A stretch of DNA of 64,000 nucleotides, from contig JBBFKW010000003.1 of the NCBI GenBank assembly GCA_037481835.1, forward strand, positions 32,001-96,000, in the 5' to 3' direction. Numbering within the stretch: position 1 is the stretch's first letter; each line of letters starts with the position of its first letter. A program made the position numbers and the translations under genes. Positions 5,286 through 10,571 of this stretch are shown one piece after another. The notes under the pieces were generated by a model. The model saw only the letters and a program-made list of their open reading frames with translations, was not told the DNA's origin and ran no database searches. The DNA is from Desulfosoma sp. Lineage in GTDB: Bacteria; Desulfobacterota; Syntrophobacteria; Syntrophobacterales; DSM-9756.

Positions 5286-5450
5286 TCAGCTTTTCTTACT
5301 CGTTTGCGCCGTGAAGACGGACATGAGCTGTTTGACCTTGGCGCTCTTGCATTCAGGGCATTGGACCGGGTTTTTCCCATGCTCAGAAATGCTCTGAATA
5401 ATGGTGAATTCCTTTTGGCAGGACTGGCATTGGTATTCGTACGTCGGCAT
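5286..5450 (-). CDS. FmdB-family zinc-ribbon protein
   Basis: MPTYEYQCQSC...CPECKS..VKQLMS; GGAGG SD before ATG 5450. Confidence 0.85.
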   Translation of the reverse strand: MPTYEYQCQSCQKEFTIIQSISEHGKNPVQCPECKSAKVKQLMSVFTAQTSKKS

Positions 5451-5585
5451 GGCGTCCTCCTCTTGGATTGACAAGGAATCGTGTCACGCCTCTCGGCGGA
5501 AAGCGCCCTGGGCGCTTTTCCCTTTATACGTATCATGGCGGGTCGGAGCCGCCAAGATGCCCTTCCGATACTCGTCCGCAAGGCC

Positions 5586-5882
5586 TCAACAACATCCCGA
5601 ATCCAGGCTGCAGCAGCCCTCCCCCGAACGGCCGATCATGGTGTTCAGCACCGCCTGGGCGCACCCGACGCCGGCCTGGACGAAGATGGCGTTCGCCGGG
5701 CAGTTTCGCGCACACGCGCCGCACTCCATGCAGGCGTCCCGATCCACCATGCGCGTCGTCCCGTTTTCCCGGACAAAGACACCATGAGGGCACACAACGG
5801 AACAGAGACCGCAGCTTACGCACTTTTCGGGATCCCATCGGAGCGTCACCACGTCCTTCAAATACACAAAACGGCCGATCAT
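5586..5882 (-). CDS. hgcB: Mercury methylation ferredoxin HgcB
   Basis: Two CxxCxxCxxxCP motifs including CMECGAC, AGVGCA, and C-terminal vicinal CC pairs; directly after hgcA; GGAGGAG SD. Confidence 0.95.
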   Translation of the reverse strand: MIGRFVYLKDVVTLRWDPEKCVSCGLCSVVCPHGVFVRENGTTRMVDRDACMECGACARNCPANAIFVQAGVGCAQAVLNTMIGRSGEGCCSLDSGCC

Positions 5883-5925
5883 GAAAGGCTCCTCCACGGG
5901 GCGAGGCAAGGGACGCAGGTCCCCA

Positions 5926-7086
5926 TCACGCCCCAGCACACAGCGCCCACAGCCACAACCCCACAAGTCCGGCAAAGAGGGCGATTTCCAAGGGTACGGC
6001 CCAACGCATTTCCCGGCGCACGCCGGAAAGGGAAGTGTAGGTCGAGGCTCCCGTAAAGTTCATGGCGAGGAAGGCGGAGACGGCCAAGAGGCCCGAAATC
6101 CAAGAGCCGGCTTCCAGAGGACGGCGAACCGCCGGGTCCAGAAAAGGCCAAAGGATCGCGACGAGAATCCCGCCGGCGAAAAGCCCTTTCGTCGTAAAGG
6201 CCCGGCCGGGAAGCCATGGGAGCAAAAGAGGAGTGAGGACGGCTCCGGCGGCGATTCCCGCCGCAAGAGCGGTCAGGGGACTCCAAGACGCCCTCCATGC
6301 CGCGCTCAGGAAAGGGCCTTTCGAAAGGATCCCGCCGAGGACGAAAAAAGCCACCGCCGCAAGCCCCGCCCATTTGAGGCTGTGGACCAGTTCCACGGGG
6401 ATGAGCGCCATTCGTTCGCGGAAGGGAAATCGTTTGCGCCGCATGGCCTCCGAAGCCTTGTAGCCTTCATCCAAATAGGCGGGAAGGTCTCGAGCGTCCA
6501 CGGGGCCGAAAAGGGCCCGGAATCCCGTTCGAGCCTTGACATGCCGGGCCGCCACGCCGGGGGCCGAAAGCTGAGGCAGGACCACGGTGCCGTGAGAAAC
6601 GATTTCTTTAAGGCGGCAGGCCTGGATGCGGAAAACCACTTCATCCGTGCCGAAGGTGCCTTTGCCCGCAGCGCACCACACATTGATCCCCTTGGTGTCC
6701 ACAACCAGGATCCACGCGTCTCGTCCCGGCAAAGCCGCTCGCAACGCGTCAAAACTCAATTTGTAATTGGCCGTGACCAAGACGGGATCTTTCGGGCCGG
6801 GATTTCCCAAGGCGTACAAGCCGGGATCCACCCTGTAGCGCATCCGCCCGTATCCCCAGCGGACCTTGAAGGCGCCCCATCTATCCCGGGCTGTGAGAGC
6901 GGACGAAACGCGCGGCACGGGGCCGACGGATGTTTCCATGCGGCCGACGACGAAGGGCTGATCCATCCGAGGGGGGCTCACCTGAGCCCGCCTTTTGGGC
7001 GGTCAGCACGAAGATTTCGGCGTCAGCACAGGGCCGCAGCACGGTTGGGCGGTTTGGCGAAGAACATCTGTCGTTCGTGTATCCAT
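5926..7086 (-). CDS. hgcA: Mercury methylation corrinoid protein HgcA, predicted selenoprotein (TGA 7003-7005 = Sec28)
   Basis: VTANYKLSFD, cap-helix GINVWCAAGKG, LPQLSAPGV, C-terminal TM helices, MNFTGASTYTS; frame extends upstream through TGC-TGA to ATG 7086 with AAAGGA SD. Confidence 0.93.
6970..6993 (-). promoter_or_regulatory. Candidate bacterial SECIS hairpin in hgcA
   Basis: mRNA AGG-C-GGGCUC-AGGU-GAGCCC-C-CCU; upper stem begins 13 nt and G-containing loop about 19 nt after the in-frame UGA. Confidence 0.7.
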
Positions 7087-7132
7087 CCGGGGCATCCTTT
7101 CGCGTCGTGGGGAACAGTTTTCACCCAGCCGT

Positions 7133-7162
7133 GAACTAACCCCGGCAAAGGATTTTTGTCAA
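7133..7162 (-). promoter_or_regulatory. Possible sigma70 promoter for hgcA
   Basis: Perfect TTGACA at 7162-7157; only a weak -10 (TTAGTT/TAGTTC) at 17-18 nt spacing. Confidence 0.35.
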
Positions 7163-7206
7163 TCGCCGACGTCTGCCCTAGGATTCCCCCAGGCAGGCGG
7201 ATCCCC

Positions 7207-8469
7207 TCACGGAGGGTTTTCCCGTTCGCAGGCCCTCTTTTCAGCGCCGTCCGGATTGGGAGCAATGCCGAGGAAGGCCAGTGCGGCGCCGGTGGCCAAA
7301 AGGCCCAGGGCCGTGTGGCCGTGCAGGCTGTGGGTGTGCTCCCAGAGCCACGGGCCCGTCAAGGCTCCGGCGACGCGGCCGGCCACAATAAGGCTGTAGT
7401 TGGCCGAAAGCCAGCGGCCTCGCGCGTTGGGGTTGAGTTCCGAAACATAAGGGAAGGAGCTGACCACGGTAAATTCGAAAGAATAAGCGATCCAGCCGAA
7501 CACGGCGATGGAGACGCCGAGAGAGGCCGGCGCGACCATGAGGGCTGCATAGGCCGTGGCCGCGCCCAGAAGCCCTGCGGCAAGAGCGCGTTTCTTGCCC
7601 AATCGATCCACGATCAGAGCGACACTGAGCTCCGCCGCCAATTCCATGAAACCGATCACCGTGGAAAGCAGGCCCAAAGAACCGATGCCGACGTCAAAGC
7701 GCGTTTCCATCCATGCGCCGTAGACGAGCATCAGGCTCTCGTTGGCAAAGAGTGCAAAGAAGGTCACCCCCAAGGCGGGCCAAAGCTTCCGATGGGGCGT
7801 GGAGCGCGAGGCCCTGCGGGCCGCTTGGCCGGGCCCATGCCCCGAATCCGGCCTTCTCATATCCGGGATTTTTCCGGCGCACTCATGCCGCCTTTGGTAA
7901 GGATCGAAGCCCGTCCCGGAACCCTGCGGCGCCGCGGGGAGGCGTGTCGTTGCCAGGAAAAGAGCGATCCCGATCAGTCCCAAGGCCGCATAGGGGACAT
8001 GCCAGCCGTATCGGGCGATGAGAAACCCGCCCAGCGGCATGCCGACGAACCATCCCATGGACCAGGACGATTCCAGCAGCCCCAAGGCCCGGGCTCGTCC
8101 GGCATAGGGGACATGAGCGCTGACGTAAGACTGGACCGCCGGATTGTAGACGGCGTGGGCCAACCCCATGAGGACGAAGCCCGCGAGGACCCACGGGTAG
8201 GTTCGATAAAAACCGATGAATAGACCGCTCAAGGCAAAAAAGGCCAGGCCCGTGAGGAGCCCGACCTTTTCTCCCTTCTTCTCGGAAAGGATGCCGAAGA
8301 CAATGCCGGAAAGGCCGACGAAGGACCGTGCGGCCACCAGAAACCCGGCCTGTTCCATGCCGATCCCCAGACCGCGGGCGATGGTGGGAAGGAAAGGGTA
8401 GGCCAACCGCACCCCGGCATTGAGCCATAGGCGGCTGAAGATGAGAATCCACCATCGGCTCGGCGGCAT
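7207..8469 (-). CDS. MFS transporter
   Basis: About 12 hydrophobic segments, GILSEKKGEK and VDRLGKKR loop motifs, long central loop; ATG 8469 chosen inside ORF 7207..8664. Confidence 0.85.
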   Translation of the reverse strand: MPPSRWWILIFSRLWLNAGVRLAYPFLPTIARGLGIGMEQAGFLVAARSFVGLSGIVFGILSEKKGEKVGLLTGLAFFALSGLFIGFYRTYPWVLAGFVLMGLAHAVYNPAVQSYVSAHVPYAGRARALGLLESSWSMGWFVGMPLGGFLIARYGWHVPYAALGLIGIALFLATTRLPAAPQGSGTGFDPYQRRHECAGKIPDMRRPDSGHGPGQAARRASRSTPHRKLWPALGVTFFALFANESLMLVYGAWMETRFDVGIGSLGLLSTVIGFMELAAELSVALIVDRLGKKRALAAGLLGAATAYAALMVAPASLGVSIAVFGWIAYSFEFTVVSSFPYVSELNPNARGRWLSANYSLIVAGRVAGALTGPWLWEHTHSLHGHTALGLLATGAALAFLGIAPNPDGAEKRACERENPP

Positions 8470-8641
8470 TCCCAAAAGCACCTGAAGGGCCTCCTTGGAG
8501 CTTCGGCATGATAGGCCCGCAAGAGAATACCCCCTGGCGGAGGTGGTCGTAGTCCCGGCGGGCCGCCCAAAGCCCGGGACATTACCAGAAGGCCCTCCCG
8601 TTGTCGCGCAAAAACAGCTCGAGATCCCATGCCGTCGAGCA

Positions 8642-9004
8642 TCAACTCCAATGGGCTTCCGCATTCGGGGCCGTCGAGGGGGTGAGCTCGCCTTTTTGGA
8701 AGCAGGCGATAGCTTCCTTTACGGTACCCGAAACCCCCACGTAAACGGGAATGCCTGCGGCCTGAAGCACCTGGAAAGCCTTGGGACCGCAGTGCCCGGT
8801 GAGGACGGCGTCGGGTTTCTTTCTGGCGATCAAGGATGCCGCCTGCACGCCGGCGCCCTGAGCGGCCTGAAGATTTTGGGTGTTGGAGACGACCTCAAAG
8901 GCCAGGGTTTCCGTGTCCACCAAAAGGAAACACGCAGCCCGGCCGAACCTCGGATCCACCTGGGAATCCAGATCCTTTCCCGTACAGCTCACGGCGACTT
9001 TCAT
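8642..9004 (-). CDS. NifB/NifX-family Mo-Fe cluster-binding protein (orange-protein like)
   Basis: MKVAVS, VDPRFGRA..F, GAGVQAA, LTGHCGPKAF. Confidence 0.88.
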   Translation of the reverse strand: MKVAVSCTGKDLDSQVDPRFGRAACFLLVDTETLAFEVVSNTQNLQAAQGAGVQAASLIARKKPDAVLTGHCGPKAFQVLQAAGIPVYVGVSGTVKEAIACFQKGELTPSTAPNAEAHWS

Positions 9005-9064
9005 CCGCGCTCTCCTTCCAACGGTTTCATCATGTCCAACGGTTTCAGCATGCGGCCGACTCGG

Positions 9065-10324
9065 TCAATGATCGCAGACATTGGCGCCGCATTCCAAGGT
9101 GCCTTCCAAATAGCGCCGCACAAGATTGCGGGGATCGTCGGCGGGAGCACCCGTCAGCACCCGGATCCCCCTCTCTTCAAAAAGACCGATGGCCCGTTGT
9201 CCCATCCCTCCGGCAATGACCATCCCCACACCCTGATCGGCCAGCCAACGCGGCAGAAGGCCGGGCTCATGAGGAGGTGGTGTCACTTCGGTGTGGTTTT
9301 GGATTTGCGAGTCGCGGACGTCCACAAGGACGAACTTTTCACAATGCCCGAAGTGGTTGCAAAGCTTTCCGTCGGCGGTGGGAACGGCGATGCGCAAGAC
9401 GTTCGGTTCCATGGCGGGTTTCTCCTCGTTTTGATCTGTCGGGCCTTTTTCGGTTTTGAAGCCGAGCGGCGGGGAACACCGTTCGATGACCTGATCCGTC
9501 AAAGCGTTCAAGGCGCAGGCAAACGGACCGTTTTCCGATCGACCGAGCTGCAGGGTCGTTCCGGCATCCCCGGCGTTCACCACGCTGAGATCGAAGGGCA
9601 AACTCCCCAGGAAGTGAACCTGCATCCGCTCGGCGGTTTTCCGGCCCCCTCCGGATCCAAAAAGGGGCACTTCCTTGCCGCAATGCGGGCACACCAACGC
9701 ACTCATGTTTTCCACCAGGCCCAGGATCGGCACATGGGCCTGACGGCAGAAGTTGATGGATTTTCGAACGTCCTGCAGCGCGATTTCCTGGGGCGTGGTG
9801 ACGATCACGGCGTGAACGTCCGGGATGGTTTGCGCAATGCTTAAAGGCTCATCGCCCGTTCCCGGCGGGCAGTCCACGATCAGGTAGTCCAGACTGCCCC
9901 AATGGACCTGACCGATAAACTGCTTGATGACCCCATGTTTCACGGGCCCTCTCCAAATCACGGCGGCATCGGGATCATCCAGCAGGAGCTGGATGGACAC
10001 CACATGGAGGTTTTCCGTCAGGGCATGGGGAACCAATCGCTTTTGGTCGTCCACGTGAAAAGTTCCCTGAACCCCGAGGATCTTGGGGATGCTGGGCCCG
10101 TGGAGGTCCACGTCGAGGAGCCCCACCATGAAGCCTCTTCGTGCCAGGGCAACGGCCAAGCCCGCCGCCACACTGCTTTTGCCCACCCCGCCTTTCCCGC
10201 TCATGACCAACAGCTTGTGGCCGATGCGGCGCAATTGTTCGTGCACCAAACGGTCCTCGTCCCTTTCGGCATGGGCCGTCTTGGCCGAGCATTCAGAATC
10301 TCCGTGATGACATGCCTGCGTCAT
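9065..10324 (-). CDS. Mrp/NBP35 Fe-S carrier ATPase fused to C-terminal NifX-like domain
   Basis: SGKGGVGKS, DVDLHGPSIP, VIWRGP, DCPPGTGDE, ENMS..CPHC; C-terminal IAVP..HFGHC..PHEPG..IAGGMG..CDH; GGAGG SD before ATG 10324. Confidence 0.9.
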   Translation of the reverse strand: MTQACHHGDSECSAKTAHAERDEDRLVHEQLRRIGHKLLVMSGKGGVGKSSVAAGLAVALARRGFMVGLLDVDLHGPSIPKILGVQGTFHVDDQKRLVPHALTENLHVVSIQLLLDDPDAAVIWRGPVKHGVIKQFIGQVHWGSLDYLIVDCPPGTGDEPLSIAQTIPDVHAVIVTTPQEIALQDVRKSINFCRQAHVPILGLVENMSALVCPHCGKEVPLFGSGGGRKTAERMQVHFLGSLPFDLSVVNAGDAGTTLQLGRSENGPFACALNALTDQVIERCSPPLGFKTEKGPTDQNEEKPAMEPNVLRIAVPTADGKLCNHFGHCEKFVLVDVRDSQIQNHTEVTPPPHEPGLLPRWLADQGVGMVIAGGMGQRAIGLFEERGIRVLTGAPADDPRNLVRRYLEGTLECGANVCDH

Positions 10325-10410
10325 GATGTCTTGAACCTCCTTTGCATGAACGCGATGAATCCGTGCATGGCTTGAAAAAGTTTTTAGGAATGAACCCCGT
10401 GAAGCCATAG

Positions 10411-10425
10411 TCAAGGACCGTGCCA
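10411..10425 (-). promoter_or_regulatory. Candidate sigma54 (-24/-12) promoter for mrp-nifX
   Basis: TGGCAC-GGTCC-TTGA on minus strand (consensus TGGCAC-N5-TTGC), 87 nt upstream of ATG, next to a sigma54 activator gene. Confidence 0.6.
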
Positions 10426-10522
10426 GGCGCGCGTTCCCATGGCGGGCCTTCTCCGAATGCTTTTGGGAGGTGGGAAACCGGGGGGGCGCGGAGCCGGCGC
10501 GGACCCGGCCGGGCGAAGAAAA

Positions 10523-10571
10523 GGGAACAAAATGCATCCCCTAAAATTTCTCCCGGTGCCGTTTTGAGGCG
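10523..10571. promoter_or_regulatory. Two candidate enhancer (UAS) sites for the OrpR-like activator
   Basis: GGGAACAAAATGCATCCC (10523-10540) and GGTGCCGTTTTGAGGCG (10555-10571) share an inverted YRTTTTG core, 100-145 nt upstream of the sigma54 site. Confidence 0.4.

Follow-up and report, generated by a model that had tools for sequence, protein, structure and literature searches.

Sequence evidence for a Cys-Sec form of HgcA encoded through an in-frame UGA in Desulfosoma

We analysed a 64,000-nucleotide stretch of a Desulfosoma sp. genome (the window; contig JBBFKW010000003.1, positions 32,001 to 96,000) and find that its hgcA gene very probably encodes a 386-residue selenoprotein, an HgcA with a Cys-Sec pair near its N terminus. 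HgcA makes methylmercury, and gene callers routinely cut off its true N terminus, here by starting at GTG 6981 and in named relatives by giving proteins of 345-346 aa. A preliminary description of this DNA had claimed a hidden N-terminal extension with Cys-Sec, read through a UGA. That claim is supported by the selenocysteine machinery of the genome, by conservation of the site among relatives, by Cys/Sec interchange in homologues and by a covarying hairpin. Cys-Sec HgcA is already published at the family level, and the locus described here is one more example. Its local particulars add detail: an S-C-U-P-P motif, an extra Cys-Cys pair, variant motifs in relatives, covariation support for the candidate SECIS element and a hypervariable arm.

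The hgcA locus and its product

The coordinates claimed for the extension (ATG 7086, AAAGGA, TGC-TGA and GTG 6981) were all confirmed on the minus strand, and the translation is as it had been written (Table 1). From ATG 7086 into the called gene the frame is broken by one TGA only, at 7005-7003. The called start, GTG 6981, lies 35 codons short of ATG 7086, and the called gene ends at the TGA stop at 5926. Translation gives the pentapeptide S-C-U-P-P around the proposed Sec. The frame is open 52 codons further upstream of the TGA, and open frames are common in this G+C-rich DNA. Given this composition and the weak z-score of the fold described below, an open frame with a hairpin is not beyond chance in a single sequence, and the significance of both comes from their conservation in relatives. 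An ATG at 7095 was rejected as the hgcA start: it has no Shine-Dalgarno spacing, does not align with the starts in same-genus genomes and is absent in a related strain (run X4, described below). Scanning 5400-7400 for sigma-70 promoters and terminators returned nothing on the minus strand.

The product scored 429 bits against the NCBIfam equivalog NF040863 (HgcA_corrinoid; cut-off 275). This match starts at residue 60 counted from ATG 7095 (57 from ATG 7086), so the profile is uninformative on the arm. The cap helix carries Cys138, the proposed corrinoid ligand, and a cap-helix motif with a conserved Cys is a defining feature of HgcA. Directly downstream on the same strand lies hgcB. An AlphaFold2 model of HgcA built from a 62-sequence alignment had a mean pLDDT of 83.4 and a pTM of 0.78. 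In this model residues 1-26 are without secondary structure and stay below a pLDDT of 50, the chain becomes ordered at about residue 41, and five long helices occupy the C-terminal part (222-254, 259-291, 297-321, 323-347 and 353-383); HgcA is described with five transmembrane helices (PMC11588087). The disordered N terminus of the model would fit a flexible tether carrying the Cys-Sec pair.

Table 1. Features of the hgcA region, in window positions
Feature	Positions	Strand	Basis or detail
hgcA full-length coding sequence, as proposed	5926..7086	minus	386 codons from ATG 7086, with Sec as codon 28, then terminal TGA stop 5928-5926
Most likely hgcA start, ATG	7084..7086	minus	AAGGA 8 nt upstream; matching, aligned start 27 codons before the TGA in three same-genus genomes
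Shine-Dalgarno-like AAAGGA of hgcA	7095..7100	minus	Sequence; AAGGA ends 8 nt before ATG 7086
Predicted Cys27-Sec28 site	7003..7008	minus	TGC 7008-7006, then TGA 7005-7003
First Cys-Cys pair of the HgcA N-terminal arm, codons 16-17	7036..7041	minus	Translation; P-C-C kept in three same-genus genomes
Downstream alternative hgcA starts	6964..6981	minus	Called GTG 6981-6979; ATG 6966-6964
Core hairpin, candidate SECIS	6974..6989	minus	6-bp stem GGGCUC (6989-6984) / GAGCCC (6979-6974), loop AGGU (6983-6980)
Extended stem-loop, lower stem including the UGA	6957..7007	minus	Single-sequence fold prediction only
Cap-helix Cys138 in N-V-W-C-A-A-G-K-G (residues 135-143)	6673..6675	minus	Translation; invariant in 62 aligned sequences
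hgcB, ferredoxin gene, Cys form (G-V-G-C), with C-terminal Cys-Cys	5586..5882	minus	NF040864, 116 bits, cut-off 99

The TGA is conserved among relatives

The read-through HgcA protein was used as query against 40 further genomes of the order. Half of them, twenty, contain a match of hgcA grade (E at most 6e-80); in the rest only a paralogous corrinoid protein was hit, weakly (E about 1e-13 to 1e-16). The preliminary description had named an unconserved upstream frame in relatives as grounds for dropping its claim; both the TGA and the frame are in fact kept in 18 of the 20 hgcA-bearing genomes, with the TGA inside the match (17 intact and one split at a contig end); genomes G024 and G004 have no TGA, and G024 carries Cys-Cys in an uninterrupted frame. 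Counting the window's own gene, 19 of 21 loci bear the TGA, and in all 19 it lies 107-109 codons upstream of the cap-helix motif. A Cys codon precedes it in 15 of the 19, the exceptions to Cys-Sec reading G-G-U-C (G008 and G005), G-U-S (G007) and S-U (G021). The motifs of the relatives can be summarized as S/P/L-C-U-P/G, with G-U-C, G-U-S and S-U also present. The stretch from the TGA to the D-Q-P-F motif shows protein-level conservation in relatives, and in the X4 strain it is identical.

Interchange of Cys and Sec at codon 28, which had been put forward as a check, was found in an alignment of the window HgcA with 61 full-length, uninterrupted database homologues (372-396 aa). The database search behind this alignment also matched an entry from a cultured relative, a Desulfacinum strain. 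Conservation in the alignment column of Cys27 is at least 90%, and Cys-Cys aligns exactly with Cys-Sec in 37 of the 61 homologues, or in about 45 when a shift of one column is allowed. In the remaining homologues the Cys is absent or has Arg, Gly, Ser, Trp, Gln or Tyr after it. Cys homologues are therefore aligned at the UGA and homology lies on both sides of it, the general pattern that marks a probable selenoprotein, with homology upstream of the site limited to the Cys residues and the length of the arm.

Across the phylum, 250 other genomes sampled evenly, together with G000, yielded a match at E at most 1e-60 in 75 of 251. Twenty-five of these matches contain a TGA, 36 extend to query residue 27 or beyond it towards the N terminus and contain no stop, and 14 begin after residue 28 and are uninformative. 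A TGA is thus missing from the site in 36 of the 61 informative matches, and these counts indicate that Sec and non-Sec forms of HgcA are both widespread.

A covarying hairpin follows the UGA

The SECIS-like hairpin that the preliminary description placed 13 nt past the UGA is present, and it shows compensatory changes across relatives. The called GTG covers the last two bases of its loop (positions 3-4) and the base that opens its 3' arm. As a single sequence the fold is unexceptional: positions 6940-7010 fold at -28.4 kcal/mol, compared with -25.3 +/- 3.0 for shuffled sequences (z = -1.04), and 25 of 200 shuffles fold equally well. The 19 loci, which give 18 distinct sequences, were aligned over 58 nt from a point 3 nt ahead of the TGA, and RNAalifold, unguided, predicted the same hairpin. 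Within the 7-bp aligned helix 90.2% of cells are paired, compared with 78.3 +/- 1.7% in shuffled alignments, and 0 of 500 shuffles reached 90.2%. The covariation score was 0.396, against 0.222 in shuffles (0 of 500); both the pairing and the covariation figures are inflated by kinship of the sequences, an effect that the controls remove only in part. Changes on both sides occur in six of the seven pairs and are classic compensatory ones; one pair, for example, is C-G in 11 sequences and U-A in 7. When the partner strand was slid by 1-3 columns, pairing fell to 22-66%.

In 18 of the 19 loci the four-base loop has G at its position 2, which is the third base of a codon. As controls from the same genome, selD and two formate dehydrogenase genes have hairpins that start 12-14 nt past their UGA, compared with 13 nt in hgcA. 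By these features the element has what is expected of a putative bacterial SECIS, namely a stem-loop just 3' of the UGA and a G in the apical loop. The lower stem of the extended structure is not established, since only its G-C-U-G / C-A-G-C base recurs in the alignment fold, and this base overlaps the conserved D-Q-P codons. Rfam gave 0 matches across the whole window at gathering thresholds, and with permissive E-values it gave no bacterial SECIS family over 6850-7150. Two sub-threshold matches to archaeal snoRNAs on the opposite strand (E 0.28 and 4.9) were taken as chance.

Start codons and the case for a downstream start

Start-codon evidence bears on whether HgcA could be made without reading the UGA. 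The called GTG had been described as lacking a good Shine-Dalgarno sequence. This holds for GTG 6981 itself, where a weak AAGG 9 nt upstream is all there is, but not for the next in-frame start, ATG 6966, which has AGGTGA 11 nt upstream in three of four same-genus genomes. Because of this AGGTGA, arguments from ribosome-binding sites do not exclude a downstream start in this genus. Neither downstream start of Desulfosoma hgcA is kept in more distant relatives. In five of these (G022, G033, G034, G035 and G039) no in-frame start comes sooner than +22 past the TGA, if one occurs in range at all; a start at +22 or later removes the invariant Gln43 and cuts a beta strand (pLDDT about 96), so that these five genes would be left without a complete HgcA unless the TGA is read. 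Upstream, an in-frame start with an SD-like 4-7-mer lies 27-45 codons before the TGA in 19 of 19 TGA-bearing loci, a count that is weak evidence because the test accepts 4-mers, which are often chance matches.

One alternative is that the gene makes two isoforms, a full-length Sec-containing HgcA when selenium and SelB are available and an arm-less HgcA from ATG 6966, with the hairpin acting as a selenium-sensing switch. We consider this unlikely, although it survives better than the other alternatives. The AGGTGA upstream of ATG 6966 overlaps the hairpin in three of four same-genus genomes, and arm-less or Cys-form HgcA proteins exist in nature. Tagged recombinant HgcAB is also active: N-terminally His-tagged ND132 HgcAB from E. 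coli methylates Hg in lysate, from a construct that may or may not begin at the upstream start (PMC11588087). Weighing on the other side, distant relatives have TTG or a non-start codon where ATG 6966 stands, with nothing usable in the five genomes named above, and any such switch would for this reason be genus-specific. If it were real, it would give two HgcA isoforms with different mercury handling according to selenium supply. As RNA, the SD-like AGGUGA is buried in the hairpin loop and 3' arm, and it would be exposed if Sec insertion failed and the hairpin opened.

It is distinctly improbable that the UGA is a true stop, so that HgcA is made from GTG 6981 or ATG 6966 as a separate product, whether or not the 27-codon ORF upstream is translated. 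Both downstream starts have the upstream sequences just given, database entries of close relatives (P0002 and P0012) begin at M-D-Q-P-F-V, the arm upstream of the TGA is poorly conserved, and the hairpin of the single sequence is not significant. A true stop, however, does not sit easily with a TGA that keeps the same codon position throughout the order (19 of 21 loci) and usually has a Cys codon before it, or with Cys-Cys at that place in uninterrupted homologues. Five relatives have no start before +22, the stretch from the TGA to D-Q-P-F is conserved as protein and unchanged in the X4 strain, and the hairpin covaries. These observations argue for the Cys-Sec reading.

The genome encodes the selenocysteine machinery

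The genome of the window is 99.4% complete in 38 contigs. The preliminary description had named the Sec machinery elsewhere in the genome as a check, and all four of its parts were found: selA (627 bits), selB (411 bits), a tRNA-Sec with anticodon UCA (74.5 bits) and selD, which itself has an in-frame TGA at a G-A-G-U site. Two formate dehydrogenase alpha genes have a TGA at the classical A-R-[IL]-U-H-S site. From selA, selB, tRNA-Sec, the Sec-containing selD and the two Sec-type fdh genes, we conclude that the organism decodes UGA as Sec. An alternative code in which TGA specifies Trp or Gly was rejected, as hgcA itself and the upstream MFS gene both end in TGA.

Contig C21 carries a second selB-like gene (278 bits) and, about 1.1 kb away, a tRNA gene on which the programs differ: tRNA-Sec-like for Rfam (53 bits), tRNA-Cys for ARAGORN. 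Such a pair raises the idea that the UGA of hgcA is read as Cys, through a second SelB-like factor and a Sec-shaped tRNA-Cys (selC*). Pairs of selC* and selB* are known in Syntrophobacterales and Desulfobacterales, and the form with a UCA anticodon is reported to read UGA as Cys in E. coli (PMC5389517). The C21 tRNA, however, has the anticodon GCA rather than UCA and should therefore read UGC and UGU, not UGA, and the canonical tRNA-Sec(UCA), selA and selD are all present. We regard decoding as Cys as very improbable, and Sec as the residue that the genome would be expected to insert.

The arm varies between strains

Independent DNA supports the TGA; among the public sequencing runs listed as containing the locus, none is an RNA run. 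Contigs from run X3, which belongs to a study separate from the two possible source runs, have 0 differences from the window over 6800-7300, TGA included. Run X4 contains a related strain in which 2 substitutions fall within 6800-7002, the TGA is intact and the Cys codon before it is changed silently from TGC to TGT (TGT-TGA). Hardly any probability attaches to a sequencing or assembly error at the TGA, or to this hgcA copy being a pseudogene, for which we found no point in favour: the X3 contigs from a different study are identical, the divergent X4 strain keeps the TGA, 18 relatives have the same TGA, and the remaining gene is intact, at 429 bits.

Upstream of the TGA the two strains differ far more. 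Over 7006-7086 (81 nt) the X4 strain has 20 substitutions, together with one insertion and one deletion that lie 6 nt apart and cancel. In this strain the frame is still open and still has ATG 7086, but no longer ATG 7095, and Cys-Ser stands in place of the first Cys-Cys pair. The divergence between the strains is 25% in the arm upstream of Cys-Sec versus 1% in the core. The substitutions in the arm fall 8/8/4 on codon positions 1/2/3, and their number and spread point to weak constraint at the protein level on most of the arm, in this one comparison of close strains. The HgcA arm thus appears to be kept in frame and in length, with a sequence almost free to vary except at its Cys-Sec end. Its fast evolution, which shows no bias towards third positions, could conceivably reflect diversifying selection rather than mere relaxation.

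Proposed mechanism

We propose that translation of hgcA starts at ATG 7086 and that the hairpin past the UGA at 7005-7003 acts as a bacterial SECIS, which would recruit SelB with Sec-tRNA(Sec). Sec would then be inserted after Cys27, at codon 28, in a SelB-dependent manner. The predicted product is a normal HgcA, with its corrinoid-binding domain and five membrane helices, preceded by a flexible arm of about 40 residues that bears Cys-Cys and Cys-Sec. The soft thiolate/selenolate pair may capture Hg(II), or hand Hg(II) to the methyl-corrinoid site, together with the C-terminal Cys-Cys of HgcB. That the Cys-Cys and Cys-Sec arm binds Hg can reasonably be inferred. The preliminary description called the enzyme selenium-dependent, but a strict need for selenium is counted against by the many HgcA proteins with Cys, or with neither Cys nor Sec, at this position and by the activity of the His-tagged ND132 HgcAB mentioned above. 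With Cys-Sec mounted on a flexible arm, selenium availability would be tied to the mercury-methylating machinery, and the trait may in this way bear on the well-known environmental antagonism between selenium and mercury.

Comparison with known systems

The preliminary description was right to remark that Cys-Sec extensions had already been reported for HgcA. Haft and Gwadz report that most HgcA proteins are selenoproteins and place the Cys-Sec motif ahead of the predicted start, with P-C-U-G-P in all 20 cases examined and an extended length of 363-400 aa; they added reference data to NCBI's annotation pipeline and put forward the idea that the Cys-Sec pair binds Hg(II) and presents it to the methyl-corrinoid (bioRxiv 10.1101/2022.07.06.499078). 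A 2023 version in J Bacteriol is cited in PMC13188914 and PMC11588087, and the former, a 2026 review, names HgcA (NF040863, motif CU) as one of the prokaryotic selenoproteins. In the literature searched we found no experimental demonstration of Sec in HgcA.

The hgcA gene of the window resembles the form of Haft and Gwadz in its single in-frame UGA upstream of the called start, its predicted Cys-Sec, its length of 386 aa, the Sec machinery of the genome and the extra Cys nearby. It differs in having S-C-U-P-P where their 20 of 20 have P-C-U-G-P. Support for the SECIS element differs as well, being manual inspection and a failed server check in their account and covariation in ours. The arms of G021 and G024 resemble the published Geobacter-type arm, with TGA or Cys-Cys equally far from the cap helix, which places the Sec of the window at the published site. 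Given this shared position, we read S-C-U-P-P as variation within the family.

Cys-form HgcA, of which G024 is an example, has an arm of equal length and the pair at the same position. The second residue there, however, is Cys encoded by TGC or TGT, and hence no recoding or hairpin is required.

The archetype of bacterial in-ORF SECIS/SelB recoding, and of its consensus features, is E. coli fdhF. The hairpin of hgcA is like such elements in forming a stem-loop directly 3' of the UGA within the coding sequence, with a G in a small apical loop, and unlike them in its hgcA-specific sequence, which matches no Rfam family.

Haft and Gwadz also list Cys-Sec in SAO proteins (SaoL, SaoB and SaoC) and in a small MerT group (bioRxiv 10.1101/2022.07.06.499078). 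These proteins, which are thought to act on mercury-like metals or organometallic compounds, share with the HgcA described here a Cys directly followed by Sec, whereas their folds and loci are unrelated to those of HgcA.

Sequence variation in the HgcA arm and at its probable Sec site

Comparison with one related strain, represented in a public sequencing run (X4), showed that the N-terminal arm of HgcA evolves faster than the adjoining non-coding DNA. The two strains differ at 20 of 81 positions in the arm (window 7006-7086), which also carries two compensating indels, and at 5 of 77 positions in the intergenic stretch upstream of hgcA; the core next to the arm (window 6800-7002) differs at 2 of 203. 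The arm substitutions showed no third-position bias.

The residues at the Sec site also vary. Among same-order relatives, Sec is followed by Cys (G-G-U-C) at the same codon position in G008 (L024) and G005 (L025), lacks a neighbouring Cys (G-U-S) at an unchanged codon position in G007 (L026), and is preceded by Ser at that position in G021 (L039). These motifs deviate from the published Cys-Sec rule for HgcA. In our alignment of 61 full-length homologues with the window protein, eight full-length database homologues (P0004, P0027, P0039, P0040, P0043, P0054, P0058 and P0103) keep the Cys but have Ser, Arg, Gly or Trp after it, in the column of the Sec. Each of these four residues is a single base change away from TGA, and they may represent decayed Sec codons or a gene-caller translation of TGA under another code.

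The loop and 3' arm of the SECIS hairpin contain a Shine-Dalgarno-like AGGTGA, located 11 nt upstream of the in-frame ATG 6966 (window 6966-6983) and found before this ATG in three of four same-genus genomes. It could serve an internal start at ATG 6966.

Genomic context and comparison with known systems

In selD and both formate dehydrogenase alpha genes of the window's own genome (G000), a hairpin starts 12-14 nt 3' of the TGA.

Features of the window and of other G000 contigs
Feature	Location	Strand	Remarks
selD	C9:80257-81183 (L009)		single in-frame TGA, classical Sec site
formate dehydrogenase alpha	C5:54152-57217 (L050)		single in-frame TGA, classical Sec site
formate dehydrogenase alpha	C16:12787-13536 (L052)		single in-frame TGA, classical Sec site
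hgcB	window 5586-5882		Cys form (G-V-G-C), Cys-Cys terminus
MFS transporter	window 7207-8664	minus	PF07690, 1e-34
Zn-ribbon protein, FmdB-type, 62 aa	window 5289-5474	minus	PF09723; C-x-x-C pairs
selB-like gene, second	C21:4209-6098		278 bits; loci L003 and L013 comprise this gene and the tRNA
tRNA	C21:7239-7326		tRNA-Sec-like in Rfam, 53 bits

Between the end of the MFS gene and the start of hgcA, which follows it, there are 120 nt; a similar MFS gene likewise precedes hgcA in G008 (L024). Further upstream, the same strand (window 8645-10537, minus) encodes two proteins with a Nitro_FeMo-Co domain: in one the domain stands alone, and in the other it is fused to a P-loop ATPase of the ParA/NUBPL type.

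The window's hgcB encodes Cys at the position that Haft and Gwadz (bioRxiv 10.1101/2022.07.06.499078) report as Sec in 17 of 266 HgcB proteins. Directly downstream, the FmdB-type protein has Cys at all four positions, whereas FmdB-family proteins with U-x-x-U are described as selenoproteins in other organisms in a 2026 review (PMC13188914). The C21 tRNA, upstream of the second selB-like gene by approximately 1.1 kb, was called tRNA-Cys (anticodon GCA) by ARAGORN, in contrast to its Rfam assignment. Together, this tRNA and selB-like gene match the selC*/selB* pairs known from Syntrophobacterales and Desulfobacterales (PMC5389517).
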